From Methylobacter sp. (GTDB lineage Bacteria > Pseudomonadota > Gammaproteobacteria > Methylococcales > Methylomonadaceae): 64,000 nt of DNA. Shown piece by piece: positions 11,209 to 61,522 of the stretch. The notes under the pieces are model-generated. The model was not told where the DNA came from, ran no database searches, and saw only the letters and a list, made by a program, of their open reading frames with translations. Within the stretch, counting starts at the first letter, position 1. Each line of letters starts with the position of its first letter. Location: assembly GCF_030680395.1 (NCBI RefSeq), contig NZ_JAUXVR010000009.1, positions 39,931 through 103,930 on the forward strand, read 5' to 3'. The translations under genes and the position numbers were made by a program.

Positions 11209-14200
11209 CCGAAGATCAACTGGAACAAGAAACCCTAAGCTGGCTGGCCGATGTCGGCTACACGGCTGTCTATGGCCCCGAGATTGCGGTGGACGGCAGT
11301 GCGCCCGAGCGCAGCAATTATATCCAGGTGGTTTTGGTCGAACGCTTGCGTAATGCGATCAATCGGCTCAATCCTCTGGTTCCGCTGGTCGCCCGCGAAG
11401 ATGCCTTGCAGCAGGTCTTGAATCTGGATACGCCGGTGCTGCTGGCGGCCAATCGACACTTTCACCGCTTGCTGGTCAACGGTGTGCCGGTGGAATATCA
11501 AAAACAGGCTGAAACACGCGGCGATTTTGTGCGCCTGATCGATTTTGAGGATGTTGCTGCCAATGAATGGCTGGCGATTAATCAGTTCTCGATCAAGGGC
11601 CCAAAATATACCCGCCGCCCCGATATCATCCTGTTCATCAATGGCTTGCCGCTGGTGCTGCTGGAGCTGAAGAACCCTGTCGACCTCACTGCCGATATCT
11701 GGAAGGCCTACGACCAGATTGACACTTACAAAGAGCAGATTCCAGATGTGTTCCAGTACAACGAAGTGCTGGTGATTTCGGACGGCACCGAAGCGCTGAT
11801 GGGGTCGCTTTCTGCCGACAAAGAGCGTTTTATGGCATGGCGCACGATTGATGGCGTGGAGCTTGATCCGCTCGGTCAGTTTAACGAACTGGAAACACTG
11901 GTGCGCGGTGTGTTGGCTCCGGCTTATCTGCTGGGTTTTTTGCGCTTTTTTGTGCTGTTTGAAGATGACGGCACGCTGGTCAAGAAGATCGCCGGTTATC
12001 ACCAGTTCCATGCGGTGCGTTCGGCCATCACGCAGGTGGTAGCCGCATCACGCCCCGGCGGCAGTCACAAGGGCGGCGTGGTCTGGCATACGCAAGGCTC
12101 CGGCAAGAGCATCACCATGACCTGCTTTGCCGCCCGCGTGATGCGGGAAGTGGCGATGGAAAACCCGACCATCGTGGTGATTACCGACCGCAATGATCTG
12201 GATGGGCAATTGTTTGGCGTGTTTTCGCTGTCGCAGGATTTATTGCGCGAGCAGCCGGTACAGGGCGAAACCCGTCAGGATTTACGCGCCAAGCTGGCCA
12301 ATCGTCCTTCCGGCGGCATCGTGTTTGCGACGATCCAGAAGTTCATGCCCGGCGAGGATGAAGACAGCTTCCCTGTGCTGTCGGATCGTCACAATATCGT
12401 GGTGATTGCCGATGAAGCGCACCGCACCCAGTACGGTTTTGAGGCAAAACTCAAAACTGTCCGTCGTACCCACTCCCCGATAGAAGCTTTCGGGGGCAAA
12501 CTTAACAGGAATGACGACGTTTTGATGGCTGCCGAAGAGCCGGCCAGCTATTTAACGCGCTATCAGGTCGGTTACGCCCAACATTTACGTGATGCACTGC
12601 CGAATGCCACCTTCGTCGCTTTTACAGGCACGCCCGTATCCTCCGAAGACCGCGATACCCGTTCTGTGTTCGGCGATTACATCCACATTTACGACATGCA
12701 GCAGGCCCGCGAAGACGGCGCGACAGTGGCGATTTATTTTGAGTCACGGCTGGCCAAGCTGGGTCTGAAGGAAGAGTCATTGCCAGACATCGACGCCGAA
12801 GTCGATGAACTGGCGGAAGACGAGGAAGAAGACCAGCAAGCCCGGCTGAAGAGTCGCTGGGCGGCGCTGGAAAGCGTCGTTGGTGCAGAACCCCGCATCC
12901 GGCAAGTGGCCGCAGATCTGGTCGCTCACTTCGAGGAACGCAGCAAGGCACAATCCGGCAAGGCCATGGTGGTGGCAATGAGCCGCGAAATCTGCGCGCA
13001 CCTGTACAACGCCATCATCGCGCTACGCCCCGACTGGCACGATGAAGACCCGGAAAAGGGTGTGATCAAGGTGGTGATGACCGGCTCCGCCAGCGACAAG
13101 CCACTGCTGCGACCGCATATCTATTCCAAGCAAGTCAAAAAGCGTCTGGAAAAGCGCTTCAAAGACCCCGAAGATCCAATACGTCTGGTGATCGTGCGCG
13201 ATATGTGGCTGACCGGCTTTGACGCGCCTTGTGTGCATACGATGTATGTGGACAAGCCGATGAAGGGTCACAACCTGATGCAAGCCATTGCGCGAGTCAA
13301 CCGCGTGTTCCGCGACAAACAGGGCGGCTTGGTGGTTGATTACATCGGCATCGCCAATGACCTGCAACACGCATTAAAGGAATACACCGCCAGTAAAGGA
13401 CGCGGACGCCCGACCGTCGATTCTCATGAAGCCTATGCCGTGCTGGAAGAAAAGCTCGATATATTACGGGCCATGCTGCACGAATTTGATTACAGCGGAT
13501 TCCTGACGGGTGGCCATAGCATGCTGGCGAAAACTGCCAACCATGTTCTTGGCATCAAGGATGGCAAGAAACGCTTTGGCGATACTGCCCTGGCGATGTC
13601 CAAAGCCTTTACTCTTTGCTGCACGCTGGACGAAGCCAAGGCCGTGCGTGAAGAAGTCGCCTTCTTTCAGGCGGTCAAAGTGTTGCTGACGAAGAAAGAA
13701 ATCAGCGGCAAAAAGAAAACCAATGAAGAGCGCGAACTCGCCATCCGCCAGATCATCGGCTCGGCGGTGGTATCCGAAGAAGTCGTCGACATCTTCAATG
13801 CCGTGGGGCTGGATAAACCGAATATCGGCATCCTGGACGAAGACTTCCTGAACGACGTGCGTAACCTGCCGGAGCGCAACCTCGCCGTGGAATTGCTGGA
13901 GCGCTTGCTGGAAGGCGAAATCAAAACCCGCTTTGCCAGCAATGTCGTGCAGCAGAATAAATTCTCAGAACTGCTCGCCAACGTCATCAAGCGTTATCAG
14001 AACCGTTCTATCGAAACCGCACAGGTGATGGAAGAGCTGATCCAGATGGCAAAAAAATTCAAGGAGGCAGTAAACCGCGGAACCGATCTTGGTCTCAACA
14101 GTGACGAACTAGCCTTCTACGATGCGCTGGCGAACAACGAAGATTCTGTGCGCGAACTGGGTGATGAAACCCTGAAGAAAATCGCCCATGAGCTGGCGGA

Positions 14201-28410: not shown

Positions 28411-29634
28411 ATGAAACTCCAACATATCGATATACATAACGCCATTACCGCATTGAGTTGCGCGCTGGATTTAGTCGGCGTTGACGAAGTCAGGCACGGC
28501 AAGCGCGTGGCGATCATGGCCAGGGCGATTGCCCGGCACCTGAACTGGCCGGAAGTTGACTGCCTGTCCATTCTTTACGCCGGTATGCTGCATGATTGCG
28601 GGGTTTCCAGAGTTCATGAGCACCACCAACTCACGGAAACACTGGAATGGGACGGTGCGGAAGATCACTGCATCCGCGGTTCCGATTATTTGTCTGCCTG
28701 TCCGCCGTTGGCGTATTTGTCCGCCGAGATTCGCTACCATCACACCCGCTGGGAAGACCTGCTGGCGTCGCCTGTCGATCATCGCCTTTGCTTGCGCGCC
28801 AATCTGCTGTATCTGGCGGATCGCATCGATATGCTGCAAACGCCTTTCCTGAGCACCGGCCATATACTGACCGAGTATCCGGCGATTATCGCGCAAATCA
28901 AAACGCTGTCCGGCATCTTGTTTGCGCCGGAACTGGTGGATGCCTTTGCCGAAATCGCCGATGTCGAGGCCTTTTGGCTGGCGATGGAACCCGAATATCT
29001 GGATGAAGATTTACGCAGCATCGGTAGCCATATGCCAACGACCCTGCTCGATATTGCTGCGATCAAAGAGCTGGCGCGGCTGTTTTCGCGCGTGGTGGAC
29101 GCCAAATCCCCGTACACCGATGAGCACTCGCAACGGGTGGCGCATATCGCCCGGCAACTGGCTATGGATTTCGGCATTAAAGGTTACGAACTGGAGCAGG
29201 TTGAAATCGCCGGACTGTTGCACGACATCGGCAAATTGCGGGTATCGGAAGACATCATCGACAAACCGAGCAGCCTGACGCCGGAGGAACGGGCCACCAT
29301 GCACCGCCATAGCTACGACACCTTCCGCATCCTGCAACGGGTGTTTGACGACTCGAAGATTCCGCTATGGGCCGGATTCCACCATGAGACTTTGATCGGC
29401 GATGGTTACCCTTTTAAAAACGGCACCAAAGAACTGGACCTGGAATGCCGCATCATTACCGTTGCCGATATTTTCCAGGCCTTAGCGCAAGAACGGCCCT
29501 ATCGCCATACCATGAGCCTTGACTATATTCTCAACGATTTACAGTCGCGCGTTGCCAGCGGCCATCTCGATGCGGGAGTGGTGGCTAAATTGACTGAAAA
29601 TGCAGAGCTTTATTACCGGCTGGCTGTGGCTTGA
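28411..29634 (+). CDS. HD-GYP domain protein (predicted c-di-GMP phosphodiesterase) with an additional degenerate N-terminal HD-type domain
   Basis: The C-terminal domain reads LLHDIGKL...HHETLIGDGYP (HD and HHExxDGxGYP). The N-terminal half has HD (MLHDCGVS) and HHTRWEDL but no GYP motif. Confidence 0.8.
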   Translation: MKLQHIDIHNAITALSCALDLVGVDEVRHGKRVAIMARAIARHLNWPEVDCLSILYAGMLHDCGVSRVHEHHQLTETLEWDGAEDHCIRGSDYLSACPPLAYLSAEIRYHHTRWEDLLASPVDHRLCLRANLLYLADRIDMLQTPFLSTGHILTEYPAIIAQIKTLSGILFAPELVDAFAEIADVEAFWLAMEPEYLDEDLRSIGSHMPTTLLDIAAIKELARLFSRVVDAKSPYTDEHSQRVAHIARQLAMDFGIKGYELEQVEIAGLLHDIGKLRVSEDIIDKPSSLTPEERATMHRHSYDTFRILQRVFDDSKIPLWAGFHHETLIGDGYPFKNGTKELDLECRIITVADIFQALAQERPYRHTMSLDYILNDLQSRVASGHLDAGVVAKLTENAELYYRLAVA

Positions 29635-49061: not shown

Positions 49062-50360
49062 TTAAGACTTTGCCTGCTCAACGGCAGGCTCACGCCAAGT
49101 TATGCCGCAACATAACAAAAACACCATCCAGAGTGGGACGTAGCTGCGGAACAGACTCGATTCCATCGTGTTGTTCAGCAATACAAACAACAAACAGGTC
49201 AATAGCAGCAGACCTGTAAGCCCGTCATGCCGCGCCAAGCGCAGGATGCTCAGGAACAAACCGATAGTCAGGACCGCTACTAATAAAAGGCCGACATAGC
49301 CCATCTCCAATACAACGTCAACGTAACCGTTATGGGCTTGTAACAGACCGGCAATAAAACCCTGGCCTAATGCTCGCGCTGCGTCTCCGACGCCCCAGAA
49401 AGAGCCGAAACCGTAGCCGACAAATGGCGCCTGATTAATGTAATAGCCGGCAAATGCCCAGATCTTGGTGCGTCCGGTGAATGTGGTATCGTGAAAAATG
49501 AGTTCCGATATGTCGCTGATGCCGAATGGAATGAGCAATGAGGCCGCTACAACCGCTACAGCAAAGGTTAAACACATGACGACTGCAATAGTGCGCGCCA
49601 GCGAGTCTTGTATCCTGGATAGGCTGACGATCAATCCCGCAAGCAGAGGGGTGACAATCATCAAACCTATAGAGGTTTTAGAATGGCTCACAACGCACAA
49701 ACCAACTGCCAGTAGCGCCAGAGCGGCAAATATCCAGCGCAAACGGCCTTGATGCCGGGCAGATGCATAGACGATAAAAAAGAAGCCCGTTGTAACAATC
49801 TGGCCCAAACCATTCTTCTGGGAATAGATGCCACGATAGCCAAAGTCCGGGACACCCAATAACGGCAGTATGAGCACGTTGATTATGATCACAGCGGCAA
49901 AAATCCAGCATACTTTGTCGAGTATCTGTTGCCGGTCAACAACCATGATAAAGGGGGCAACCACACAAAATAACAATAATGCCTGTTGCATTGAGCGTCG
50001 CAGACTGATTGCCGGCACATCGCTCCAAAAAGCGCTAACTATCTCCAGCAGCAGATACGCAAACAGCAAGAAGATATGCAAGCGCGCTCTTCTCAGCTCC
50101 TTGTTACCTGTGTTCGCCCAAAAGTAACCAACCATTCCTGTCAGCACAAGCCACACGATCTTATTGCTCGCGGTTCCCTCAGATACAGTCTGATTAATGC
50201 CCGAGCCAAACTCAGTCTCCGCTGTCGCGGAGAACATCAGCAACGGCGCGATAATCAACGCATAGGCAAACGCCAGCGGAGCAATCCATGACACAATCGC
50301 ACTAGGAATATTTTTTAGGCTGTCTTCCAGGAGATTCCCGTTGTTCAATTTATTTGTCAT
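49062..50360 (-). CDS. O-antigen ligase/polymerase-like (Wzy-type) membrane protein
   Basis: 432 aa and polytopic, with an O-antigen-ligase-like loop (SHSKTSIGL...). The position matches exosortase-associated polymerase genes. Confidence 0.65.
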   Translation of the reverse strand: MTNKLNNGNLLEDSLKNIPSAIVSWIAPLAFAYALIIAPLLMFSATAETEFGSGINQTVSEGTASNKIVWLVLTGMVGYFWANTGNKELRRARLHIFLLFAYLLLEIVSAFWSDVPAISLRRSMQQALLLFCVVAPFIMVVDRQQILDKVCWIFAAVIIINVLILPLLGVPDFGYRGIYSQKNGLGQIVTTGFFFIVYASARHQGRLRWIFAALALLAVGLCVVSHSKTSIGLMIVTPLLAGLIVSLSRIQDSLARTIAVVMCLTFAVAVVAASLLIPFGISDISELIFHDTTFTGRTKIWAFAGYYINQAPFVGYGFGSFWGVGDAARALGQGFIAGLLQAHNGYVDVVLEMGYVGLLLVAVLTIGLFLSILRLARHDGLTGLLLLTCLLFVLLNNTMESSLFRSYVPLWMVFLLCCGITWREPAVEQAKS

Positions 50361-51609
50361 GAGAATCCTTGCTTACGTTCGTGAACCTGGTTCGCGCCAA
50401 GATATAAAATATACCGGCCGCCGCAACGGCTTCACCGGCAATGACTGATGTTACGGCCCACTCCGGCACGCCAGCCAAACACACACCCAGGAGCACCCCC
50501 ATTGAAGCGACAGCCCCTATGATTGTCGTTAGCGCAAGCTGTTTGAACTTCCGGCAGGCCTGCACTCCCACCCCGCAGACGGAGCGTATTTGAAAAAGCA
50601 GCGTAGCAAGCGCCCACAGCATGACCGTTAAGACCACACCGGAATATTTATCGCCAAAAAAGTGCTGATTCAGAAAAGGCCATGCGAACCATAGCGCGGT
50701 CGAGAAAGCAATATTCAATACGATGAAGCTGAGTACAGATATGCCCAGTAAACGGAAAAACTGACCCGAATTGCTTTCTTCTGCCAATACGGAAAGATGC
50801 GGCCTGGCAACACGACTCCACGCGGAAGCAACCAGATTAAGCGGCCCGAAAAAAACGCGTCCCGCCTGGATATTCCCAACGGCTGCTGTGCCAAAGATTG
50901 CTCCAACGACAAAAACATAGCCTCGGTTCTGAGCCTCCGTTGTTGCAACGCCTATCAAGCTCCAGGAAGCTTCTTTCCATACTCCGGGATACAGTTCCTT
51001 ACATGTTTGCCACGGACTTTGCAGGATACTGCGTATTTCGCCTATGAAAGAAGGCAGCATAACCATCAGGTTTGCTAAAGCCAGTGCATTCAAACAAAAT
51101 GAAAGAGAAAACGCATGAGGTTCAAGATACAGATACGCATAAACAAACTCGGCAGCAGCCATAATCGCAAAAAATCCATCATCGATTAATACCGATTTGA
51201 GCCTGCCAACCACTATGGCCCGATTTCGAAGATATTCCCGAAATAAACTGGTAGCCAAATAAAATCCAATTGCAGTAATTGTTGGCATGCCCCAGTCTAA
51301 CTCCGGGAATATGGCGAACAAAAAACTGCTCAAAAACGCGACAATGCAAATCAAAATATTGACGACTGAAAATAATGTCCGAAGCTGCTTTTTTCTTACT
51401 CCGGATGTTACGGTAGGCAGCATTACAGAGGCGGGCGTATTCACCATGGCATTCTGAATGCCGACCAGTAAAAATCCCACCGACAGGATAATCCCGAACT
51501 TGCCGTATTCCTGTGGACTCCATGCTTTGATAAGAACCAAGTTCAATGCAAAGTTGAATGCTGAAACCAAGCCTTGATCCACAATTGAAATTGCAACGCG
51601 CTTTTTCAA
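50350..51609 (-). CDS. oligosaccharide flippase (Wzx / polysaccharide biosynthesis protein family)
   Basis: 419 aa and polytopic (about 12 TM). The N-terminus is Wzx-like (IVDQGLVSAFNFALNLVLIK). Confidence 0.7.
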   Translation of the reverse strand: MKKRVAISIVDQGLVSAFNFALNLVLIKAWSPQEYGKFGIILSVGFLLVGIQNAMVNTPASVMLPTVTSGVRKKQLRTLFSVVNILICIVAFLSSFLFAIFPELDWGMPTITAIGFYLATSLFREYLRNRAIVVGRLKSVLIDDGFFAIMAAAEFVYAYLYLEPHAFSLSFCLNALALANLMVMLPSFIGEIRSILQSPWQTCKELYPGVWKEASWSLIGVATTEAQNRGYVFVVGAIFGTAAVGNIQAGRVFFGPLNLVASAWSRVARPHLSVLAEESNSGQFFRLLGISVLSFIVLNIAFSTALWFAWPFLNQHFFGDKYSGVVLTVMLWALATLLFQIRSVCGVGVQACRKFKQLALTTIIGAVASMGVLLGVCLAGVPEWAVTSVIAGEAVAAAGIFYILARTRFTNVSKDSHDK

Positions 51610-51705: not shown

Positions 51706-52446
51706 TCATTCATAGGCTTCATTGCTGTTATAAAAAGTACTGCCAATCAGGCGTTTCCGATTTTCAGGGGATAGCGCCTTCAAAAGCGCCTTGATGAAAT
51801 CTTCCTGCGCCGGATAAGCCACAGCCTCATCGCCCAGACTGGAAACCCGGAAAACCATGCCATCGGGGACTTTCCCGGTCAGGCCGTATTTCAATTGTGC
51901 CAGTTTCCATTGACGACTGTTGATAGTCATTGTGTCCCCTATTGTTATCCAATAGGTGACTGGCTCGACTCTAGCGCCTTGAATTGCCAACATCCGTTTG
52001 ACCGGAACAGTTCCAAAACCCGTATTAAAAATACCGGCCACGTTCTTTAGTATCTGAAACCCTTGAGCGCTGTAACAGACTTCGGGCTTGTGGACCTGCA
52101 TCATGTCGCTTTGATCATTTCCATAAGCAATCGACAGCATGATTCGCCTGCCTTCATCGTCGATATAAGCCCGCGACAGGGTCTGACTATAAAGTTTATT
52201 TATCAAGGACTGCCTGACGGGATTCACTAACGGATATATCAAGCTGTCGTCCTCTCGCCAATGGCCAAATTGCTTGGGAAACATAGTTTCCAGGTTAATT
52301 TGCGTTTGTTGTTCCGCTATTTTTTGCACCGGCTTTAAGAGCACAGCAACGTACGCCGTCAACAGCATCAACATCAACATAGTTAAAGCTCTAAGCTGGA
52401 ACGGTCGAGTGCTTGTGACCGGCAATTGAGAGTGTCTGATTTCCAT
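51706..52446 (-). CDS. EpsI-family exosortase-associated protein
   Basis: 246 aa with an N-terminal TM helix, then FPKQFGHWRE... (EpsI-like periplasmic domain). It lies immediately downstream of the exosortase gene. Confidence 0.75.
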   Translation of the reverse strand: MEIRHSQLPVTSTRPFQLRALTMLMLMLLTAYVAVLLKPVQKIAEQQTQINLETMFPKQFGHWREDDSLIYPLVNPVRQSLINKLYSQTLSRAYIDDEGRRIMLSIAYGNDQSDMMQVHKPEVCYSAQGFQILKNVAGIFNTGFGTVPVKRMLAIQGARVEPVTYWITIGDTMTINSRQWKLAQLKYGLTGKVPDGMVFRVSSLGDEAVAYPAQEDFIKALLKALSPENRKRLIGSTFYNSNEAYE

Positions 52447-52465: not shown

Positions 52466-53356
52466 TTAAATCTTGGTTGTCAGGCTTGGCGGCACAAAAA
52501 CCGGCTCTGGAAATATTTTTCTCAGCAAGCTGTCCAGGCTAAAAAACACCAGCATTGCCACTGTAAACATAATAATTCCAGCCGCGTTATGCAGAACCCC
52601 TTGCCCCGCTTCATCGCCTAAATGGTAAGTTATCAGGACCAGTAAAATAACCCGCACCACGTTGGCAAAGAAGGCGACCGGTATAATGCTCAAAAACAAA
52701 AACAGGCGGTGTTTCCAGTTTTTGTAGGCGCTCAGGTGCTGATAGAGCAAGCCTACGGCTGATAATGAAAATAGCGTGTGTAATCCTGAGCAGGCATCGG
52801 CAACCAAAAGCTGATACTTACCGATCAGCAAAGATACACCGACCCGGGCAATGGGGTATCCAGCCCAATAAAGGATCTGTTCCGCTATCAAGGATATTAT
52901 CTGCTTTAATGGTCCAGTGATTTCATCAACCAGAAATCCAGGCAGGGGAATCATAAAGACGACAAATAACAGAGGAAATAATACCTGCTTAACCGCATCA
53001 ATTCCTACGGTAATAAGTAGGCTGCCCCCCACCACAAAAATGATAGAACCGATTTCAAATATCAAGATTTCCTGGGAACGACCCACTGCGTAAAACAACA
53101 GTCCTGATAGCAATACCAGACTGCCTGACCATAAATTACTGGTGTTAGTCGATGCGATGAATAAACGACGCTTTTGCCAAAACAAGTAAACCGTTACCGC
53201 CAATATAAAAGGTCCATGCCCCTGCTCTTCTTTGTTCCAGAGGCCGCAGGCCAGGTCGTAAAAAGTCGGCACATATAAAACCGCCAAACCTAACAGCACC
53301 GGCCAAGCCATTTTAATGCCGCAATCTCGACACCATTCTGATACAGAGGTCATCAC
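52466..53356 (-). CDS. exosortase (EpsH/XrtA-like)
   Basis: 296 aa and polytopic. The conserved exosortase motif reads VADACSGLHTLFSL and a downstream Arg region reads FFANVVRVILL. Confidence 0.85.
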   Translation of the reverse strand: MMTSVSEWCRDCGIKMAWPVLLGLAVLYVPTFYDLACGLWNKEEQGHGPFILAVTVYLFWQKRRLFIASTNTSNLWSGSLVLLSGLLFYAVGRSQEILIFEIGSIIFVVGGSLLITVGIDAVKQVLFPLLFVVFMIPLPGFLVDEITGPLKQIISLIAEQILYWAGYPIARVGVSLLIGKYQLLVADACSGLHTLFSLSAVGLLYQHLSAYKNWKHRLFLFLSIIPVAFFANVVRVILLVLITYHLGDEAGQGVLHNAAGIIMFTVAMLVFFSLDSLLRKIFPEPVFVPPSLTTKI

Positions 53357-53369
53357 CGATAGTTTCCGC

Positions 53370-54266
53370 TTAGTTCATTACCACGCCGAGCAGTTCTGCT
53401 CCGGTGGTGAAAAGCTGGCTTTTAACCCGTAATGCATCGGCCATCCGGGTTTGGTCACGACGAACAACCAGAACGCAACAGCCGGCCCGTGCTGCAACAA
53501 TTTGTGCATCGGCATTGTCCAATGCGGGCGGAGTATCACAAATAATGCTGTCGTATTTTTGCCCGACGGCTTCCAGCATCTGGCTAAAACTTGTGCGACT
53601 GAGAAGCTCTTGGGGATTAGGCGGTAAAGCCCCGGCACAGAGAATTGAGAGATTGGCAAAGGGTTTAACAGGTGTGATGGCATCGGAATAATGAATGCGG
53701 CCTGCCAGTACACTGGATAATCCCAGTTGATTGTCCAATCCGAATAGCTGGTGTTGGTTAGGGTTACGTAAGTTGGCATCTATCAGCAAGGTTCGCTCAC
53801 CCAACTGCGAAATTTCAATGGCCAAGTTGGCAGCAAGCTGGCTGCTTCCATCTTCATGCTGGGTGCTTATTAAAGCCAGCGCTTTTCTATGTCCGCCAAA
53901 CCAGCGCAGCATAAGTTGGCTACGCAGGGCGCGCAAAGCTTCGCACTGACTGCTATTTGGCTGATAAGCGGCAAACAGCTCCGAACTTAAACCGCTCTCG
54001 TTATCAACCTGCAAGCAAGAGTAATCGAACTGACGGGCAAGCGCGCGTAAAATATCATCTTCTTTAAGCAAGCCAAGGCGAAGAGCTGCTTCGCCGAAAC
54101 GCAAATGATATTCGCGCTGCACTTGTGAAATTTGTTCAATGCTTTGTTCCGTCAACTTACCTGACGCAACCAGCAATTTGCCGATTTTGGTATCAACCGG
54201 CGGCATGAAAGGTCTGTCCAGGATATTTTCAACTACGCTATTCATATTAAATTTTCCAAAATTCAT
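53370..54266 (-). CDS. EpsG-like BY-kinase-fold protein with MshEN-like N-terminal domain and degenerate Walker A
   Basis: Walker A' is LLIDANLRNP and Walker B is SIICDTPP. The Walker A position reads ISTQHEDGSSQ, with no GK[ST]. The N-terminus reads KIGKLLVASGKLTEQSIEQISQVQ-REYHL-RFGEAALRLGLLKEDDILRALARQ. Confidence 0.75.
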   Translation of the reverse strand: MNFGKFNMNSVVENILDRPFMPPVDTKIGKLLVASGKLTEQSIEQISQVQREYHLRFGEAALRLGLLKEDDILRALARQFDYSCLQVDNESGLSSELFAAYQPNSSQCEALRALRSQLMLRWFGGHRKALALISTQHEDGSSQLAANLAIEISQLGERTLLIDANLRNPNQHQLFGLDNQLGLSSVLAGRIHYSDAITPVKPFANLSILCAGALPPNPQELLSRTSFSQMLEAVGQKYDSIICDTPPALDNADAQIVAARAGCCVLVVRRDQTRMADALRVKSQLFTTGAELLGVVMN

Positions 54267-54298: not shown

Positions 54299-55681
54299 TT
54301 AAGGGTTACTCATGACGGGTATTTCTCCCAATACAACCAAGCCTAGTCCTTCAGAAATATCTTCCGTTGTACGCAAACGCCGATCAAACAGTTCCGCGAG
54401 CAGCGCAAAACCTGTACCCAGAAAAGTGCCTAGAAAGAGCGACAACAGCAAATTTAGCCGGGTTTTTGGACTGGCTGGTTTTAACGGGGGAACGGCCGGA
54501 TTAAGGACCGCGATATTACTTTGATCGATCTGGCTTTCTAAATGCACCTGGCCTGCACGTTGCGAAGCCGCATCATAAGCATTTTGTGCGTTCTCGACTT
54601 CTTTGGTAAGCACATCAAGCACGTCTCTTTGTTGTTTTAAATTAAAAATGCGTTGTTTTTGATTTTCCATCGCTTTTTGCAGTTCTTGTGCTCTGTGTTG
54701 GTCAATTTCTGCCGCTTGCCTTACCGATCCGATGGCATTATTGATCTCTACTTCCATTTTTGTGCGCAATGAAGCCAGTTCCGCGGCAGCGCTTTGATAT
54801 TGAGGATGTTTTTTTCCATAGCGCTCGCTAAGTTCGGCTAATTTAGCCCCCGCTTTTACAACATCCGACTTCATGCTTTGCAGCAATGTGTTGCCTAAAA
54901 GATCAGGCAGCTCCTGCAAATGTTTTTTTACGGTCGCCTGAGCCATTTGCCTTAACCGGGTTTGGCTATCGTAAACTTGCGCCTGAACAACAACCAGTTG
55001 ACTGGAAATCTCCGCCAGCCGGGCACTCTCTAAATCCAGCCTTTGACTATCAGCTGCAACAATGCCATGTTCACGTTGCGCTGTGGAGAGTTTTTCCTGC
55101 GCCGCCTGGACATCTTTTCTCAAGTTCAGAGTCTGTCCTTCAAACCATTCATTCTGGCGTTTTGCCGGCTCAACTTTAAGGTCCAGCACGGTTTGAATGT
55201 AAGCATCGCCAAAAGCATTAGCCAATGTAGCGGCAAATTGCGGTTCCTCACTGGTGTAATTTATGTGGATTATGCTGCTTTCTCTTGAAGGTTTAACATC
55301 CAGGCTTTTTAGTAAAGCGTCGGCCAGCCAATCCCGAATGGTACCTTCCTCATTTGTGGCTTCTATATATTGCTCCTTAACCTGAGCAATATCGGTCAGG
55401 TGTAACTGATCAACCACCCGCAAGGCGACAGCATGACTGGAAATAATATCAACCTGTGTCGCCATATAACCGGGTATTAATTGTGATATTACCTGTGAAG
55501 ATAGTGTAAGGCCGGTTAATGGATCGGCATTTTTACTATCGGTAACCACAGACACGGTTGCAATATAGCGTTTCGGTAAAAACAGGCTGACCGTCAAGGC
55601 AATCAAAAGAGTTATAGCCACAGTCAACAATAAAATATTTTTGTGCGCTCTAAGAATCAATAGTAATTGGTTAAATCTCAT
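54299..55681 (-). CDS. polysaccharide chain-length determinant (Wzz/EpsF-like, PCP family)
   Basis: 460 aa with an N-terminal TM helix, a long coiled-coil periplasmic region, a C-terminal TM helix and a PKTRLNLLLS region. Confidence 0.82.
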   Translation of the reverse strand: MRFNQLLLILRAHKNILLLTVAITLLIALTVSLFLPKRYIATVSVVTDSKNADPLTGLTLSSQVISQLIPGYMATQVDIISSHAVALRVVDQLHLTDIAQVKEQYIEATNEEGTIRDWLADALLKSLDVKPSRESSIIHINYTSEEPQFAATLANAFGDAYIQTVLDLKVEPAKRQNEWFEGQTLNLRKDVQAAQEKLSTAQREHGIVAADSQRLDLESARLAEISSQLVVVQAQVYDSQTRLRQMAQATVKKHLQELPDLLGNTLLQSMKSDVVKAGAKLAELSERYGKKHPQYQSAAAELASLRTKMEVEINNAIGSVRQAAEIDQHRAQELQKAMENQKQRIFNLKQQRDVLDVLTKEVENAQNAYDAASQRAGQVHLESQIDQSNIAVLNPAVPPLKPASPKTRLNLLLSLFLGTFLGTGFALLAELFDRRLRTTEDISEGLGLVVLGEIPVMSNP

Positions 55682-55684
55682 GAC

Positions 55685-56491
55685 TTACAACCAACTTTCT
55701 TTTACGTACAACACATCATCCGCCTGTAATAAGCTAAAGTCTTCCACATCTATCTCCTGTTCTTTACCTTCTGCATCGCGGCGTTTAACAATAGGCGCCG
55801 GCCAGCTTTCCGCGCCTTTGGGTGTTAAGCCGCCTCCTGCCGAAATTGCCTGGGCAATGGACATGTTTTTTGCCAATTTATAAGAACCGGGCCGTTGTAC
55901 TTCACCGTAGATATAAAACATAGGCGCACGCGGCACAACGATGACATCGCCATTGGTAACGGCGTAATTTTGTGTGCGATCTCCTGCCAGCAATGCGTTC
56001 AAATCTATAGTTACCTTGCTGCCGTTACTATGCAATAACGTAGCGAAATCAGCCGCTGGAGGCACTTCGGTAATACCACCCGCCTGAGCCAGCAAATCGA
56101 TGACATGACCGGATACTTCAAGCGGATAAATACCGGGTTTATTAACCAGGCCCAATACATTGACTTTCTGGCTTACAAACTGGGTGACCACGAGGGTGAC
56201 TTGGGGCGCTTTAATAAAATCACCATCGTTCAGTCGCCGGGTAATCAATCGTTCCGCTTCGGCGACTGTTTTTCCGCCAAGACTTACCTCGCCGAGCAAT
56301 GGAAAACTTATATTGCCCGTCTCACTGACGCGTATCTCCGTTGTTAAATCGGGGTATTCATAAACACTGATTTTAATAACATCCCCGGAACCCAAGCGGT
56401 AATCTTTATTAATTTCATCCGACCAAGCCATTTCGAACACGCTAAGCCGAAACAATACGATTACTGTAAGCAAAAATCTCATATTCATCAT
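55685..56491 (-). CDS. polysaccharide export protein (Wza/EpsE-like; Poly_export + SLBB)
   Basis: It has a signal peptide (MMNMRFLLTVIVLF) and reads YRLGSGDVIKISVYEYPDLT...GNISFPLLGEVSLGGKT. The start is set at 56491. The track's 56722 start would overlap the upstream gene by about 220 nt. Confidence 0.82.
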   Translation of the reverse strand: MMNMRFLLTVIVLFRLSVFEMAWSDEINKDYRLGSGDVIKISVYEYPDLTTEIRVSETGNISFPLLGEVSLGGKTVAEAERLITRRLNDGDFIKAPQVTLVVTQFVSQKVNVLGLVNKPGIYPLEVSGHVIDLLAQAGGITEVPPAADFATLLHSNGSKVTIDLNALLAGDRTQNYAVTNGDVIVVPRAPMFYIYGEVQRPGSYKLAKNMSIAQAISAGGGLTPKGAESWPAPIVKRRDAEGKEQEIDVEDFSLLQADDVLYVKESWL

Positions 56492-56501
56492 AGAAGGACT
56501 C

Positions 56502-57524
56502 TTATTTAATTTGGGACAAACCTTGTTCCAGAATTTTTTGTTTATCGCGTTCTGGTTTGGTGTCGGAAGGAGGCGCGGCTTGCTGTTCTGCTTGTGCGGA
56601 CGCAATGGTTTTATCCTGTTCGGCAAAATCTCCCTGATACACAATGGTCGCCGCCGCATGTAGCTGTTTAAGGTGCTCGTCCAGTATTTGTTTGTTACGT
56701 GTATTGACAAGAAACTTTTCAATCTGAACTTGCGCCTGCTCCAGACTAATCGGATGCTCAGCGAAATTGATCACCTGCATCAACAATTGTTTTGACTGCG
56801 TTTGAGGCACAATGAGGATATCGCCGACTTTAGCATTGGCAAAAGTACTTAGCATTTCCAAAGGCAACTGTTCAGCAGACTTGGTCACCGTTTCTTCCAG
56901 AAACTTGATTTGATATTGTTTAAGCAACTCTCTGACGTGTTCAACTGTTGAAGCCTGACCTAGTGACACATTAAGAGCAGGATCAAGTTTTGGCGTTTCC
57001 AGATTAAAAAGTTGGAATTGATAAATGCGTCGTTTGGCAAAAAGATCCGGATGTTGCTGATAATACTCCTGCTTGGCTTGAGCGCTAACCGGGGCAGGAT
57101 TCAGCACGTGGCGCTGTACATAAGATTGTGAGAGTATTTCCCGCTGGGCATTCTCTAGCGTCATCATCGTATCCGGATCGCGATCCAGTTGGTTTGAAAG
57201 GGCTTTTTGAACTAACAATTCCTGACCGATCAAACTGTCCAGTGCTTTACGCGAGGCACCGTCTGCCGAACCACTGACGCCTGAAGCTTTTATCACTTCA
57301 TTGACTTGGTGTATGGTGATTTCAGAATCATTGACCTTGGCAGCCACTTGAGTAGACTGTTTTTCGGTTAAGTCCTTACCACAGCCAGCCGCGGCCAACA
57401 TAGATAACGCTAAAACACTGTTAGCCAGATTTCTGGCAACAACTCTTTTATCAACACGTTCAAAATAAATTCCACTCATTAATTCTTTGGTCCCCTTTGT
57501 CGAGTTAATATGCATTTTTGTCAC
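56502..57524 (-). CDS. EpsD-family peptidyl-prolyl isomerase-like lipoprotein (SurA/PpiD-like)
   Basis: It has a lipobox (LAAAGC) and a SurA-N-like region. The position matches epsD of PEP-CTERM loci. An alternative start at 57479 (MSGIYF) avoids overlap with the upstream gene. Confidence 0.7.
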   Translation of the reverse strand: MTKMHINSTKGTKELMSGIYFERVDKRVVARNLANSVLALSMLAAAGCGKDLTEKQSTQVAAKVNDSEITIHQVNEVIKASGVSGSADGASRKALDSLIGQELLVQKALSNQLDRDPDTMMTLENAQREILSQSYVQRHVLNPAPVSAQAKQEYYQQHPDLFAKRRIYQFQLFNLETPKLDPALNVSLGQASTVEHVRELLKQYQIKFLEETVTKSAEQLPLEMLSTFANAKVGDILIVPQTQSKQLLMQVINFAEHPISLEQAQVQIEKFLVNTRNKQILDEHLKQLHAAATIVYQGDFAEQDKTIASAQAEQQAAPPSDTKPERDKQKILEQGLSQIK

Positions 57525-58950
57525 CCAGCAAGACCCCTACGGTCCGCAATATAATTTGCAAATCCAGCCCAAAAGACCAGTTCCGTAAGTAGTCGAGATC
57601 ATATTCAATCCGCGCGGCCATCTTATCCAGACTATCGGTTTCGCCCCGAAAACCGTTGATTTGCGCCCAACCGGTGATACCGGGTTTTACTTTGTGGCGA
57701 ATCATGTAACCTTTTATGAGTTGCCGATAAAGTTCGTTGTGAGAAACGGCATGGGGTCTAGGGCCAACGATGCTCATTCGTCCCTGCAAGACATTAATGA
57801 ATTGGGGCAGCTCATCCAGTGAGGTTCTGCGTAAAAAACCGCCAAAACGAGTAATTCGCGCATCATTACGTTTGGCTTGTTCAATAACACCGCTATTTTC
57901 AGAAACAGTCATAGAGCGAAATTTATAAACCCAGATTTCTTCGCCATTCAAGCCATAACGTCGCTGTTTGAATAGCACCGCACCTGGAGAACTCAGCTTG
58001 ATACCTATAGCAATTAAAATAAACACCGGAATAAGGGGAATCATCAACAACAAAGCAATAACAATGTCACTCAACCGTTTCTGGAGACTCCGCAAACCAT
58101 AAAACGGAGTTTCACACACAGCAACGACAGGCACATTGCAGACTTGATCGAAACGTGCCTGAATCAGATCGGCAATAAACAAATCGGGTACGAAATAAAT
58201 TGATGCGGTAGAGTCGCGCATGGCATCCAATAATTCTATGATTCGCGGCTGATTAGCCATTGGCAACGTAATGAACACCACATGCACCCCGTTCCGACGG
58301 ACAAATTCAGGCAGCATTTTAATAGTACCCAAAATTTTTTCACCATCCGGTACAAAAACCCTGTCAAGGCTTCTGTTTTCAAAAAAACCCAAAAAATCAA
58401 GGTCGGAAAATCTATCCATTCGACTGTTTTTAACCAGTTGCAAGCCCAGGACATCCAGCCCGACAATTACCGCCTTACGTTTTCCGGATTTATGTTTTAA
58501 AAAGAAACCCAGCAATAAAAGCACAGTAATTTGTATTAAAAAGAGCGCAAAAGGCGTGACAACACCCCAGACTTGAATTCCCGGTTCGAAAACCAAGTAA
58601 CCGAAACCGGATAGTTCAAAAATGAACCAGAGAACCATCAACATTAGCAACCAGCGCAGTAAAATATCCAGGAAACTGCGTAGCCAGGGAAACCGATTCT
58701 CTACCCGATAAATACAGACTCCATCCATAAAATGGATGGAGGCAAAAAAAACCACGACCATCATCAACAAAAAAACGCCTGACAATGGCCTTTGCCAATA
58801 CATAAAGCTGCCAGCTAACAGGCTAACGATGCTAATGGGATACAGCAGGTTCTTTATAATAAACAGCACTGGCCTGCCCAACGCTATCAAGCTTCCGCTT
58901 TGGATGCCGGATTTAGAAGCCAATCTTGTCATATCTGTTTTTGCGTCCAT
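57505..58950 (-). CDS. undecaprenyl-phosphate hexose-1-phosphate transferase (EpsB/WcaJ-like initiating sugar transferase)
   Basis: 481 aa with N-terminal TM helices. The C-terminal bacterial sugar transferase domain reads KQRRYGLNGE...DELPQFINVLQGRMSIVGPRP. Confidence 0.88.
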   Translation of the reverse strand: MDAKTDMTRLASKSGIQSGSLIALGRPVLFIIKNLLYPISIVSLLAGSFMYWQRPLSGVFLLMMVVVFFASIHFMDGVCIYRVENRFPWLRSFLDILLRWLLMLMVLWFIFELSGFGYLVFEPGIQVWGVVTPFALFLIQITVLLLLGFFLKHKSGKRKAVIVGLDVLGLQLVKNSRMDRFSDLDFLGFFENRSLDRVFVPDGEKILGTIKMLPEFVRRNGVHVVFITLPMANQPRIIELLDAMRDSTASIYFVPDLFIADLIQARFDQVCNVPVVAVCETPFYGLRSLQKRLSDIVIALLLMIPLIPVFILIAIGIKLSSPGAVLFKQRRYGLNGEEIWVYKFRSMTVSENSGVIEQAKRNDARITRFGGFLRRTSLDELPQFINVLQGRMSIVGPRPHAVSHNELYRQLIKGYMIRHKVKPGITGWAQINGFRGETDSLDKMAARIEYDLDYLRNWSFGLDLQIILRTVGVLLGDKNAY

Positions 58951-59128: not shown

Positions 59129-59683
59129 TCAGGCAGAAATAAACATAGGGTTTTGACTTATGTTTTTACGACGCAGTTGCAAGCCTAGCAGGACGATTCC
59201 AATCACCAACAAAATCCATGTTTCGGATTCCGGCACTGGAGCAACCGCTAAAGAACCGGAATAACGACCGCCTACTAGACCGTCCCCAATACCGGTAACT
59301 TTTAAAGCGTAACTGCCGGAAGCCAAGGAATTAAAAGTCACTGCCGTTGCCGCCGGATTCAAATCTCCTGAAACAGATCTATAATTCAGTGGGTTGAACG
59401 TCGACGATCCCAGCATTGTGGAATACAACTTAAGGGATAAATTCTGGATGTCTTGGATCACAAAAGAACCAGAAGGTACAGAAAGCGTATAGTTTTGATT
59501 ATTTATTTGACCGCTAATATTGTTAACTCCTCCCAAATTAAAAGTCCAATAATCCTCGAACGCACTTGTACCTACAGTTGCGTTGAATGAGCTGAGGGGT
59601 TGGTTTAAATACAGTGCATTTGCTGAAGCCCCTGTACTAACAAACATCGTTCCCAAAAAAGCCAGTAACGGCAATATTTTCAT
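59129..59683 (-). CDS. PEP-CTERM sorting-signal protein (exosortase substrate)
   Basis: It has a signal peptide (MKILPLLAFLGTMFVSTGASA). The C-terminus APVPESETWILLVIGIVLLGLQLRRK has the P-E-S motif, a TM helix and a basic cluster. The start is set at 59683. Confidence 0.8.
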   Translation of the reverse strand: MKILPLLAFLGTMFVSTGASANALYLNQPLSSFNATVGTSAFEDYWTFNLGGVNNISGQINNQNYTLSVPSGSFVIQDIQNLSLKLYSTMLGSSTFNPLNYRSVSGDLNPAATAVTFNSLASGSYALKVTGIGDGLVGGRYSGSLAVAPVPESETWILLVIGIVLLGLQLRRKNISQNPMFISA

Positions 59684-60124
59684 AATCAAATTTCCACTTA
59701 TCGTAATTAACAAAAAATCATATTTTCAAAAGGCGTATTTTTTAATACTTAATCCGGCTTCTTTTATTAGCCATCCGCAGCTTACGGATTAAAAGCTTAT
59801 TATCTAATACCCAAACTACTGCACTATTGCTAGAGCGAGCGCAGCTTTATAGCTGGTAAGTTCACGATTAATCTTGTATTTCAATCTAACAAATAAAATC
59901 CGCTTCCAAGCAGGACACAATAAATTTCTCAAAACCCAATCAACCACAGCAGGTCGTTTTGTCGTCGTGTTCAGGTTTGGCACATTAAGAATTTCAATTG
60001 GCAAAGCAAAGCGAACTGTATGAGGACTTATAAAAAATTAACGAGCGGTATAGCCGTTAATATACTTAGTTTGTGTACTCAATAATGAACGGCAAAAAAC
60101 CATTCATTCCCAAAGTCATTGCTA

Positions 60125-60253: not shown

Positions 60254-61522
60254 TCAAAATTTAAGTCTAACAGTTGCAGTAATGCTATCACCGGCATAAG
60301 AATAAGATTGGCGATTACTATCACGTTGATAAAACTGGTAAGCCAGATTAAGTTCTGCACAATGAACCGGTGTGTAGCTAACGTTGACTTGCGACGAAAA
60401 CAGTTCGTCTTTGCGCACTCCGGAGTGATTCTGGGTTTCCATGCGCGCTTGTCCTGACAGTACGATTTTGTTAGTAATATTCCAGCTGGGTGTAAAACTC
60501 ACCCCTTCAGAGATATAATAATTTGAAGCCAGCTCAGTAAAAGCCGCTAACTCGTGCCACGTTGAAACAGCGACTACTGTTTTAGCCGTAGGCATCCAGT
60601 TCATACCAATACGCCAGATTTCTCCCTGATAATCTGTCTGGGGCAAATTCGGATGGCTTCGCATTAAATACCCGGCCTGACCTTCAAAATGAAGCTTGGG
60701 CGAGTAATCATATTTAAATAAAGCTCTGGCTAAATTCTCCTGATAGGCAATATCCACAGCTCCCTCACCAAAACTCAACTGTCTGAGGGGAAACCGTGCA
60801 TCAGTATGCGCATATTCAACGCCCAGGGAATTGCCTTTTGATGTTAAAAATGTAACACCGCCATGACTAGTCTGGGACTCGATATTTTGATTTTGCCGCG
60901 CAGCGGCACTATGGCTTGTATCTGACTTTCGCCAACCCGCATCAAAGCGTATGTTCGAGTTCAATTGATAGCGAATATCAAAATAATATGCAGGCCTATC
61001 CAAAAGATCGAGCGAAAAAAACTGTGTATTTTCAAAACCTGCCAGCGACCTGCTGTATTCCGCCCCCAGTCTGCCGGACCAGTCGTGGTCGACCTGCCAT
61101 AGCCAAACGGCACTGTCTTTTGTAGACACATTATCAAGCTGATTGTTGGCCGCGTAGCGGTTGTCATCCACCTGCAGATCCAGATCAAATATCTGACGAC
61201 TTAAAGCCTTGTGTATACGGCCGCCAATCGAAGCTTTGTTGATAAAATCACCCGTTTTCATCTGGGCTCCCGGAGGCCTATCTTCTGAAAGCCTAAACAG
61301 GTTATTGTCATAAGTTAGCGACTCACTCACAAACGGTTGTAACAAATCACCTGCATCGGCTACTGACCAGGCAGATGGCGAGTATATAAATAACAGTAAC
61401 TGCATCCATAACAAGAATCGGCCCCAGCTATTCAGTTTATTCCTGGCTAGAGTTTTAACGGATAAACTTTGCAATAGAACCTCATTTATTAAGTAAACGG
61501 AATGTTTTGACAGTTCGGACAT
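60254..61522 (-). CDS. PEP-CTERM-system-associated outer-membrane beta-barrel protein (EpsL-like)
   Basis: 422 aa with a signal-like N-terminus. Alternating beta-strand pattern runs throughout and the C-terminus ends in an aromatic residue (...TVRLKF). Confidence 0.65.
   Translation of the reverse strand: MSELSKHSVYLINEVLLQSLSVKTLARNKLNSWGRFLLWMQLLLFIYSPSAWSVADAGDLLQPFVSESLTYDNNLFRLSEDRPPGAQMKTGDFINKASIGGRIHKALSRQIFDLDLQVDDNRYAANNQLDNVSTKDSAVWLWQVDHDWSGRLGAEYSRSLAGFENTQFFSLDLLDRPAYYFDIRYQLNSNIRFDAGWRKSDTSHSAAARQNQNIESQTSHGGVTFLTSKGNSLGVEYAHTDARFPLRQLSFGEGAVDIAYQENLARALFKYDYSPKLHFEGQAGYLMRSHPNLPQTDYQGEIWRIGMNWMPTAKTVVAVSTWHELAAFTELASNYYISEGVSFTPSWNITNKIVLSGQARMETQNHSGVRKDELFSSQVNVSYTPVHCAELNLAYQFYQRDSNRQSYSYAGDSITATVRLKF

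Follow-up and report, generated by a model that had tools for sequence, protein, structure and literature searches.

EpsG of a Methylobacter exosortase-B exopolysaccharide cluster: a probable pseudokinase carrying an MshEN_N module that may bind cyclic di-GMP

The gene considered here, epsG, lies on the minus strand at positions 53370-54266 of a 64,000-nucleotide stretch of Methylobacter sp. DNA (assembly GCF_030680395.1, contig NZ_JAUXVR010000009.1, positions 39,931 to 103,930), referred to below as the window, and its 298-aa open reading frame (ORF) encodes an MshEN_N module followed by a P-loop domain resembling that of bacterial tyrosine kinases (BY-kinases). It is a typical epsG, of the family TIGR03029, belonging to an exosortase-B-type exopolysaccharide (EPS) cluster of a Methylobacter-like gammaproteobacterium. 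The active-site residues indicate that EpsG is very probably a pseudokinase, and the N-terminal module, which is related to those of MshE and PilF, probably binds cyclic di-GMP (c-di-GMP). As a combined mechanism, we lean towards a non-phosphorylating scaffold of the EpsF co-polymerase that would be controlled by c-di-GMP through MshEN_N.

The translation, as well as every coordinate quoted in a preliminary description made from the sequence alone, was verified, with residues 27-79 corresponding to DNA 54030-54188 and residues 133-143 to DNA 53838-53870. Database gene calls place the start at Met8 (position 54245), which gives a protein of 291 aa, and a 100% identical protein (P0001) is likewise 291 aa long; no convincing Shine-Dalgarno sequence was seen at either of the two candidate starts inspected, Met1 and Met8, and the choice between them leaves the domains unaffected. 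The AlphaFold2 (AF2) model, with a predicted local distance difference test (pLDDT) value of 91.2, predicts disorder for residues 1-19. The curated NCBIfam EpsG equivalog TIGR03029 scored 364.7 bits against a cutoff of 313.8, and its match extends over residues 25-298, up to the C-terminus (profile positions 2-273 of 274), so the family model itself includes the motif region at the N-terminus as well as the abrupt end of the chain. TIGR03018 (XrtA-associated tyrosine autokinase), the hidden Markov model proposed beforehand for this protein, reached 100.1 bits, below its cutoff of 230.65, and was therefore rejected in favor of TIGR03029. The closest named relative is a Methylobacter sp. EpsG with 91% identity.

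The preliminary description had presented this EpsG as special. However, its description fits the curated family at large, the architecture of which has been in print since 2016, and the window copy is an ordinary member that contributes no special variant. In Wang et al. 2016 (PMC5013675), Supplementary Table 4 lists the combination "MshEN_N - AAA_31" for the Methylobacillus EpsG in beta- and gamma-proteobacteria, and the supplementary alignment includes M. flagellatus Mfla_2024, EpsG being described there as having the MshEN_N subdomain only. The combination of MshEN_N with a kinase-like domain was thus already catalogued and is no peculiarity of this stretch of DNA. The EpsG of Methylobacillus sp. 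12S and of M. flagellatus (Mfla_2024) belongs to the same TIGR03029 family and has the same two-module architecture, the same neighborhood (PGT-EpsD-EpsE-EpsF-EpsG-EpsH/XrtB-EpsI) and the same beta-/gamma-proteobacterial range, with no architectural difference; the window copy is set apart by S141/N165, by S47 and by its Methylobacter-like host. A search with the Mfla_2024 fragment printed in the 2016 supplement returned two short unrelated fragments and no full-length protein. In a genome scan, the family was found in at least 585 species-level genomes of beta- and gamma-proteobacteria, in agreement with the range published in 2016, and it occurs in methanotrophs, methylotrophs, nitrifiers (Nitrosomonas, Nitrosospira), Thiobacillus, Rhodocyclales, and plant- and animal-associated Oxalobacteraceae. 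The "epsG" of Herbaspirillum (PMC4195743) was set aside as an uninformative name clash, since that gene is described as a glucosyltransferase. Family-wide residue counts were taken from three samples, namely the 120 closest clusters, 57 copies extracted from named genomes, and the top 150 representatives, mutually less than 50% identical, from a library of 1.84 billion proteins.

The N-terminal MshEN_N module

As had been proposed, the N-terminus of EpsG has two MshEN-type motifs at residues 27-79 separated by a spacer of 5 residues. On the minus strand, motif I occupies 54117-54188 (residues 27-50, KIGKLLVASGKLTEQSIEQISQVQ), the spacer REYHL 54102-54116 (residues 51-55) and motif II 54030-54101 (residues 56-79, RFGEAALRLGLLKEDDILRALARQ). 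Profile, sequence and structural comparisons agree on this assignment. NF053729, the NCBIfam model of an MshE-related cyclic di-GMP-binding domain, matched residues 27-79 over all of its 53 positions (E 4.7e-10), and it was matched by 62/62 sampled EpsG relatives with a best E of 7.9e-16, as was TIGR03029 in the same 62. When the N-terminus alone was compared with solved structures by phmmer, PilF (6f8l, 2.8e-7) and MshE (5htl, 1.9e-4) were recovered. The alignment with MshE is ungapped and sets EpsG residues 27-79 opposite MshE residues 9-61, with the equivalences K27=R9, G29=G11, I43=L25, S47=L29 and Q50=Q32 in motif I and R56=R38, F57=L39, G58=G40, I72=L54, L76=L58 and Q79=Q61 in motif II. 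In the AF2 model, helices 24-34, 40-53, 57-63 and 69-79 form two helical hairpins at the expected positions, and the top 16 structural matches of residues 21-95 in Foldseek were all MshEN/GSPII domains. This part of the model superimposed on c-di-GMP-bound MshE (5htl) with a root-mean-square deviation (rmsd) of 1.1 A over 53 columns at 36% identity, and on the c-di-GMP-bound GSPII-B domain of PilF (8pdk) with an rmsd of 1.2 A over 53 columns, the Foldseek probability being 0.99-1.0 for both. The similarity of the EpsG module to MshEN_N is far above chance. The Pfam model PF05157 (T2SSE_N), which had been suggested for confirming the module, gave no match in EpsG even at E <= 10, and NF053729 was informative in its place; the miss is likely due to EpsG carrying the MshEN_N half alone, with no T2SSE_N1 subdomain.

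The two motifs fared differently when compared with the relaxed 24-residue pattern published by Wang et al. (PMC5013675), [RKPN]hGxxhhxx[GAS]hhxxxxhxxxhxx[QNKRYWST]. Motif II, earlier called near-perfect, satisfies the pattern and is its sole match in the entire window, whereas motif I, to which only conservative changes had been ascribed, carries non-conservative ones at K37 and S47. In the 120 relatives, the spacer is 5 residues long without exception (120/120) and motif II meets the relaxed pattern in 85, whereas motif I fails it at position 1 in 86 and at position 11 in 107, so that, by sequence, motif I is degenerate family-wide; S47 is an extra Ser of the window copy at a hydrophobic position of the motif. 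Within motif II, R56, F57, G58, L76 and Q79 are invariant or almost so across the family, and the invariant N-terminal residues (G29, L32, G36, Q50, F57, G58, L76 and Q79) all fall on motif positions.

This EpsG copy would probably bind c-di-GMP. Because motif I is degenerate, binding would rest mainly on motif II, with an affinity possibly below that of MshE. Several points count against such binding. The NF053729 score of 39.1 bits barely exceeds the cutoff of 38, and motif I fails the relaxed pattern at positions 11 and 21, both hydrophobic, where K37 and S47 stand, the latter in place of MshE Leu29, in addition to K27 in place of MshE Arg9. In MshE, hydrophobic contacts dominate c-di-GMP binding and single hydrophobic substitutions cost more than 10-fold in affinity, while changes of Arg9 or Gln32 cost less than 5-fold. 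Additionally, a footnote in the supplement of PMC5013675 states that some of the listed proteins have no recognizable binding motif, and the literature searched yielded no experiment on binding or phosphorylation for any EpsG.

The points on motif I, the profile score and the footnote are the strength of the main rival explanation, which holds that the MshEN-derived fold no longer binds c-di-GMP and serves as a structural or interaction domain, contacting EpsF, the priming transferase or neighboring protomers, with EpsG acting as a constitutive scaffold. It draws further support from the failure of most relatives at positions 1 and 11 and from the N-domains of the type II secretion ATPases XpsE/GspE, which are flagged as a special case in the MshEN paper. 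Such a loss of binding is possible, although we consider it rather doubtful, given that motif II is canonical, that the spacer length never varies, and that the predicted fold fits the ligand-bound state at an rmsd of 1.1 A. The invariant G29, G58, Q50 and Q79 also argue against it, since they correspond to guanine-contacting or motif-closing positions of MshE, and so does NfrB, whose motifs are comparably loose and which is nevertheless named "cyclic di-GMP-activated glycosyltransferase" in NCBIfam.

A further explanation accepts a ligand but not c-di-GMP as the physiological one: the module would sense another nucleotide, for example cyclic GMP-AMP (cGAMP), or the degenerate P-loop would act as an ATP/ADP switch without hydrolysis. 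According to a figure legend, VcMshEN binds cGAMP, more weakly, and the partly conserved P-loop described below suggests that a nucleotide pocket is retained. However, in MshE the backbone amides of Gly11 and Gly40 read guanine O6/N7 and exclude adenine, both of these guanine-reading positions are invariant in EpsG (G29 and G58), and no positive evidence for another ligand was found, which makes this explanation improbable.

Among known c-di-GMP receptors with an MshEN domain, EpsG can be placed beside MshE (V. cholerae, 5HTL), the GSPII domains of PilF (T. thermophilus) and NfrB (E. coli). It has in common with them the two 24-residue motifs and 5-residue spacer, a four-helix module superimposable at 1.1-1.2 A, and the fusion of an N-terminal sensor to an output domain concerned with a surface polymer. 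Unlike them, it has the MshEN_N half only, a degenerate motif I, and a BY-kinase-like P-loop domain as output instead of a T2SSE ATPase or a glycosyltransferase.

The kinase-like domain and its active-site classes

Sequence matches of residues ~95-298 of EpsG include CapB, Wzc, Etk, BceF and VpsO, with E down to 3e-35, and the predicted fold superimposes on the kinase domains of CapB, Wzc and Etk with an rmsd of 1.4-1.9 A over ~200 columns (Foldseek). With the canonical BY-kinases CapB/CapA of S. aureus, Wzc and Etk of E. coli, VpsO and BceF, EpsG shares the P-loop fold, the ExxRxxR motif and Walker B. Unlike them, it has neither a Lys in Walker A nor the second Asp of the DxDxR form of Walker A' nor a Tyr cluster, possesses the extra N-terminal MshEN_N module, and is accompanied by no phosphatase signature in the window.

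The oligomerization motif (O-motif, ExxRxxR) is formed by E109-x2-R112-x2-R115 in helix alpha2 (53922-53942, minus strand, as for all features of EpsG). Alignment A1 and 57/57 genome copies show it without variation, and in the 150 representatives the Glu is kept in 140 and each Arg in 149; in BY-kinases, ExxRxxR constitutes the protomer-protomer interface of the octamer (PMC9800525). Walker B (53526-53549, residues 240-247, SIICDTPP) retains Asp244, which is conserved in 111/120 relatives, and conforms to phi4-DxxP.

The remaining motifs depart from the active form. The Walker A position (53838-53870, residues 133-143) reads ISTQHEDGSSQ and had rightly been described as lysine-less: Gly140 and Ser142 are retained, Ser141 takes the place of the catalytic Lys, and the alignment through the P-loop is ungapped, with G140-S141-S142 opposite the G-K-S of the CapB "GAGKS". 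An intact P-loop displaced elsewhere was also considered and rejected, since no GK[ST] occurs anywhere in the EpsG translation and TQHEDGS, the aligned stretch, forms the loop that joins beta1 (129-134) to the following helix (141-153). Walker A' (53760-53789, residues 160-169, LLIDANLRNP), which like Walker B had been reported as kept, proved to be preserved only in part, since the second Asp of the DxDxR consensus is replaced by Asn165 (D163-x-N165-x-R167); in the 120 relatives this residue is Asn in 92 and Asp in 26. The second Walker A' Asp has been proposed to recognize the substrate tyrosine and to drive the chemistry, and in Wzc, VpsO and ExoP mutation of the Walker A Lys causes a loss of ATPase and/or kinase activity (PMC9800525). 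At the C-terminus (53370-53396), the last beta-strand, LLGVVMN, is followed directly by the stop codon, and the absence of a Tyr-rich tail was borne out, with 0 Tyr in the last 30 residues. This ending is general, as 117/120 relatives stop 0-2 residues beyond this point and the last 25 residues are free of Tyr in 114/120. The proposed alignment with BY-kinases thus confirmed the loss of both the P-loop Lys and the Tyr cluster.

Lysine loss is near-universal in the family. The position is occupied in the 120 closest clusters by C (43), A (28), S (20), R (16), G (7) and T (4), in the 57 named-genome copies by R (29), A (13), C (4), S (4) and others, with Lys in 0/120 and 0/57, and in the 150 representatives by R (70), A (24), C (14), K (11), S (10) and T (9), so that 139/150 (~93%) are without Lys. 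Furthermore, the residue found here varies closely together with the second Walker A' residue, Arg occurring with Asp and small residues with Asn. The 57 named-genome copies comprise 27 with R+D, 26 with non-R+N and 4 mixed, and the 150 representatives include 64 with R+D, 56 with another residue+N, 8 with K+D and 3 with K+N. Three states can be distinguished, namely GKS, a small class that mostly has DxDxR, and two large ones, GRS/DxDxR (in fuller form GEGRS+DxDxR) and G(C/A/S)S/DxNxR (G(D/E)G(C/A/S)S+DxNxR). The window EpsG, with S141/N165, falls in the last, which is the most degenerate active-site class. The literature searched holds no mention of this Arg/Asp versus small/Asn split in EpsG. 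Among the loci nearest to the Mfla_2024 fragment, which are an indirect stand-in for Mfla_2024 itself, 8/8 have lysine-less P-loops and 7/8 have DxNLR.

The 11/150 representatives that keep a canonical GKS P-loop (P0166, P0181, P0195, P0204, P0207, P0234, P0238, P0240, P0242, P0251 and P0265) bear MshEN_N and have a P-loop of the form G(D/E)GKSF, combined in eight cases with DxDxR. These proteins have no Tyr cluster, although a lone Tyr closes several of them, in the form ...LN(D/E/T/A)Y; in every EpsG class, GKS included, the cluster is absent and at most one terminal Tyr is found. They might be functional ATPases and could stand for the family's ancestral condition.

On the evidence of these residues, EpsG is very probably a pseudokinase. 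The earlier suggestion to this effect was reasonable, and it is strengthened by the loss of the second Walker A' Asp, by the lack of a phosphatase signature in the window and in 80 related loci, and by the conserved oligomerization motif. On the other side stand the GKS minority and the conservation of Gly and Ser in the P-loop, of the Asp of Walker B and of the first of the two Asp positions in Walker A', from which it follows that ATP/ADP binding may persist, with a role outside the scaffold model. That EpsG retains ATPase or tyrosine kinase activity, using a non-canonical site to phosphorylate an internal Tyr, EpsF or the priming transferase, would accord with a second-hand statement that EpsG proteins are reported as autophosphorylating kinases, with the conserved Gly140, Ser142, D163, R167 and Walker B Asp, with the Arg and intact DxDxR of about half of the family and with the GKS of a minority, but residual activity in an S141/N165 copy is unlikely, and this explanation highly so, in view of the Ser and Asn at the two catalytic positions, the effect of Walker A Lys mutations in Wzc, VpsO and ExoP, the missing Tyr cluster and the cognate phosphatase signature not found in the window or the 80 related loci.

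EpsF, the eps cluster and its surroundings

The exosortase-linked EPS cluster announced in the preliminary description was recovered as EpsD-EpsE-EpsF-EpsG-exosortase B-EpsI, and the locus is a Methylobacillus-type eps/XrtB cluster. The genes are co-directional on the minus strand in the order WcaJ-like transferase, EpsD, EpsE, EpsF, EpsG, exosortase B and EpsI type B, and the EpsD, EpsE, EpsF, XrtB and EpsI-B models all exceed their cutoffs. The priming undecaprenyl-phosphate glucose phosphotransferase (WcaJ-like) lies at 57505-58950 (TIGR03023, 488.9 bits), the peptidyl-prolyl isomerase EpsD at 56502-57524 (TIGR02925, 183.9 bits), the Wza-like outer-membrane polysaccharide export protein EpsE at 55685-56722 (TIGR03028, 271.8 bits, match from residue 107), exosortase B (XrtB/EpsH) at 52466-53356 (TIGR03113, 335.3 bits), and EpsI, the B-type exosortase-associated protein, at 51706-52446 (NF045609, 278.8 bits). 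Beyond these core genes are a Wzy-like protein and glycosyltransferases, and on the opposite side an FxDxF-family PEP-CTERM protein and an EpsL-like outer-membrane barrel. The same gene order is found in Janthinobacterium-like and Steroidobacteraceae contigs and across 80 genomes, of which 75/80 have EpsF upstream of EpsG, 70/80 have EpsE and 50/80 have exosortase B downstream of epsG, counts that include some loci ending at contig ends.

The gene next to epsG, epsF (54299-55681, minus strand), encodes a Wzz-type polysaccharide co-polymerase (PCP) and chain-length determinant of 460 aa (TIGR03017, 532 bits), in which a profile search found no kinase domain, and EpsF is the predicted membrane partner of EpsG. 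Its cytoplasmic C-terminal tail (54302-54394, minus strand, ELFDRRLRTTEDISEGLGLVVLGEIPVMSNP) is a predicted docking peptide for EpsG. The end of EpsF, ELFDRRLRTTEDISEGLGLVVLGEIP..., can be aligned with the C-terminal CapA peptide carried as a fusion on CapB in the crystallized chimeras 4jmp/4jlv, and 14/25 aligned residues are identical to the CapA1 fragment of 4jlv, with an E of only 0.11 because the query is short. EpsG and EpsF would form a bipartite system as CapB and CapA do, the membrane PCP bearing a C-terminal tail similar to the CapA activator peptide. Single-chain fusions provide independent evidence of EpsF and EpsG acting as one unit. P0160, P0163 and P0242 (749-790 aa) combine Wzz and/or GNVR domains with MshEN_N and the kinase-like domain, and, together with P0233, they represent the EpsF/EpsG pair in a PCP-2a-style form; P0233 was counted as a fusion by its length and match position alone (747-790 aa for the set of four).

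Some further observations concern the neighboring genes. The mechanically called EpsE ORF, with a TTG start at 56722, overlaps EpsD by ~220 nt and has a run of Met codons at residues 78-81; since the family match starts at residue 107 and the Met run precedes it, the true start is probably near 56482-56491. In a relative (L005, a 4.0-Mb genome contig), a 445-aa protein without Pfam match (10892-12229) follows epsG instead of exosortase B, with glycosyltransferases after it, from which it appears that the EpsE-EpsF-EpsG core is not strictly tied to an adjacent XrtB. A secreted protein of 194 aa (59129-59713, minus strand) adjoins the eps cluster and has a terminal PEP-CTERM-type sorting signal (...VPESETWILLVIGIVLLGLQLRRK...); the NCBIfam FxDxF-family PEP-CTERM model gave 64.8 bits against a cutoff of 50, and the protein is a likely substrate of exosortase B. 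The EpsL-like outer-membrane beta-barrel (60254-61522, minus strand) scored 272.1 bits with TIGR03014, slightly below the cutoff of 275, and has a Pfam BBP2_2 match. Finally, a 419-aa multi-pass membrane protein (50350-51609, minus strand), which has no Pfam/NCBIfam match at E <= 1e-3, occupies the place of the Polysacc_synt (Wzx-type) flippase in two related clusters (L001, L003) and may be a divergent flippase.

With regard to signaling genes, the signature of protein tyrosine phosphatases of low molecular weight (LMW-PTP) was found neither in the window nor in the 80 related loci, no phosphatase Pfam families occurred within 10 kb on either side in three annotated contexts, and the window contains no GGDEF or PilZ signatures. 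The HD-GYP gene pointed out beforehand at 28411-29634 (plus strand) is genuine, with HD_5 at E 1e-35 and both "LLHDIGK" and "GDGYPF" present. However, it was rejected as support for EpsG and does not point to a functional link, since it lies ~24 kb away on the other strand among unrelated neighbors (a LysR regulator and MacB/FtsX). This protein has two HD-type stretches, and its N-terminal half seems to be a degenerate HD domain, the second of the protein, and not a receiver domain.

A proposed mechanism and its meaning for the EpsG family

The mechanism towards which we lean is that of a cytoplasmic BY-pseudokinase scaffold of the kind described for EcpK and HfsB. EpsG would be unable to autophosphorylate on tyrosine, would dock on the EpsF tail, and would form ring oligomers supporting polymerization and export through EpsE. 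Its MshEN_N module would bind c-di-GMP mainly via the canonical motif II, with an affinity probably below that of MshE, and ligand binding would modulate the assembly or activity of the polymerization/export complex. In this manner, ligand binding would replace the regulatory role that the phosphorylation/dephosphorylation cycle has in Wzc, tying EPS production to the c-di-GMP level.

The BY pseudokinases EcpK (Myxococcus xanthus) and HfsB (Caulobacter crescentus) have been proposed as phosphorylation-independent scaffolds for their PCP-2 partners, and the question of how they cycle was left open (PMC12004946). Like EpsG, they are stand-alone proteins with a BY-kinase fold but without catalytic residues or Tyr tail, and they belong to Wzx/Wzy-type EPS clusters with a kinase-less PCP-2 partner that has a predicted docking site at its cytoplasmic C-terminus. 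The two cases differ in that EcpK is without any Walker motif, whereas EpsG retains most of the P-loop scaffold and Walker B. The text on EcpK/HfsB has 0 occurrences of MshEN, and the likeness to EpsG is drawn from the features named here.

A more far-reaching and tentative proposal is that, in the EpsG family, c-di-GMP binding and release replaced the Tyr phosphorylation cycle as the switch for assembly and disassembly of the co-polymerase ring, with the steps of this takeover preserved among present-day proteins. The steps would lead from a GKS P-loop without Tyr tail to GRS with DxDxR and from there to G(C/A/S)S with DxNxR.

The sole functional study of EpsF/EpsG is reportedly that of Ayabe-Chujo et al. 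from 2012, known through second-hand descriptions. The papers that cite this Methylobacillus work, as well as a 2025 preprint, still treat EpsG as Wzc-like and controlled by phosphorylation, and recent papers still argue from a Wzc-style phosphorylation cycle. The "tyrosine kinase" label of the family is nevertheless probably wrong, considering that the substrate tail is missing throughout and that ~93% of representatives are without the catalytic Lys. In the literature searched, no paper was found that joins MshEN with Wzc, BY-kinases or co-polymerases, or with EpsG in its main text. The family thus brings together two literatures that do not cite each other among the papers searched, one on MshEN c-di-GMP receptors and the other on BY kinases and pseudokinases, and it offers a concrete, testable case of how a BY pseudokinase could be regulated by a second messenger. 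If the takeover proposal were true, the "tyrosine kinase EpsG" of at least 585 species-level genomes would be a second-messenger receptor and not a kinase, and the question of how BY pseudokinases cycle would be answered. Control of this EPS pathway by c-di-GMP, if true, would bear on biofilm formation in both environmental and host-associated bacteria.

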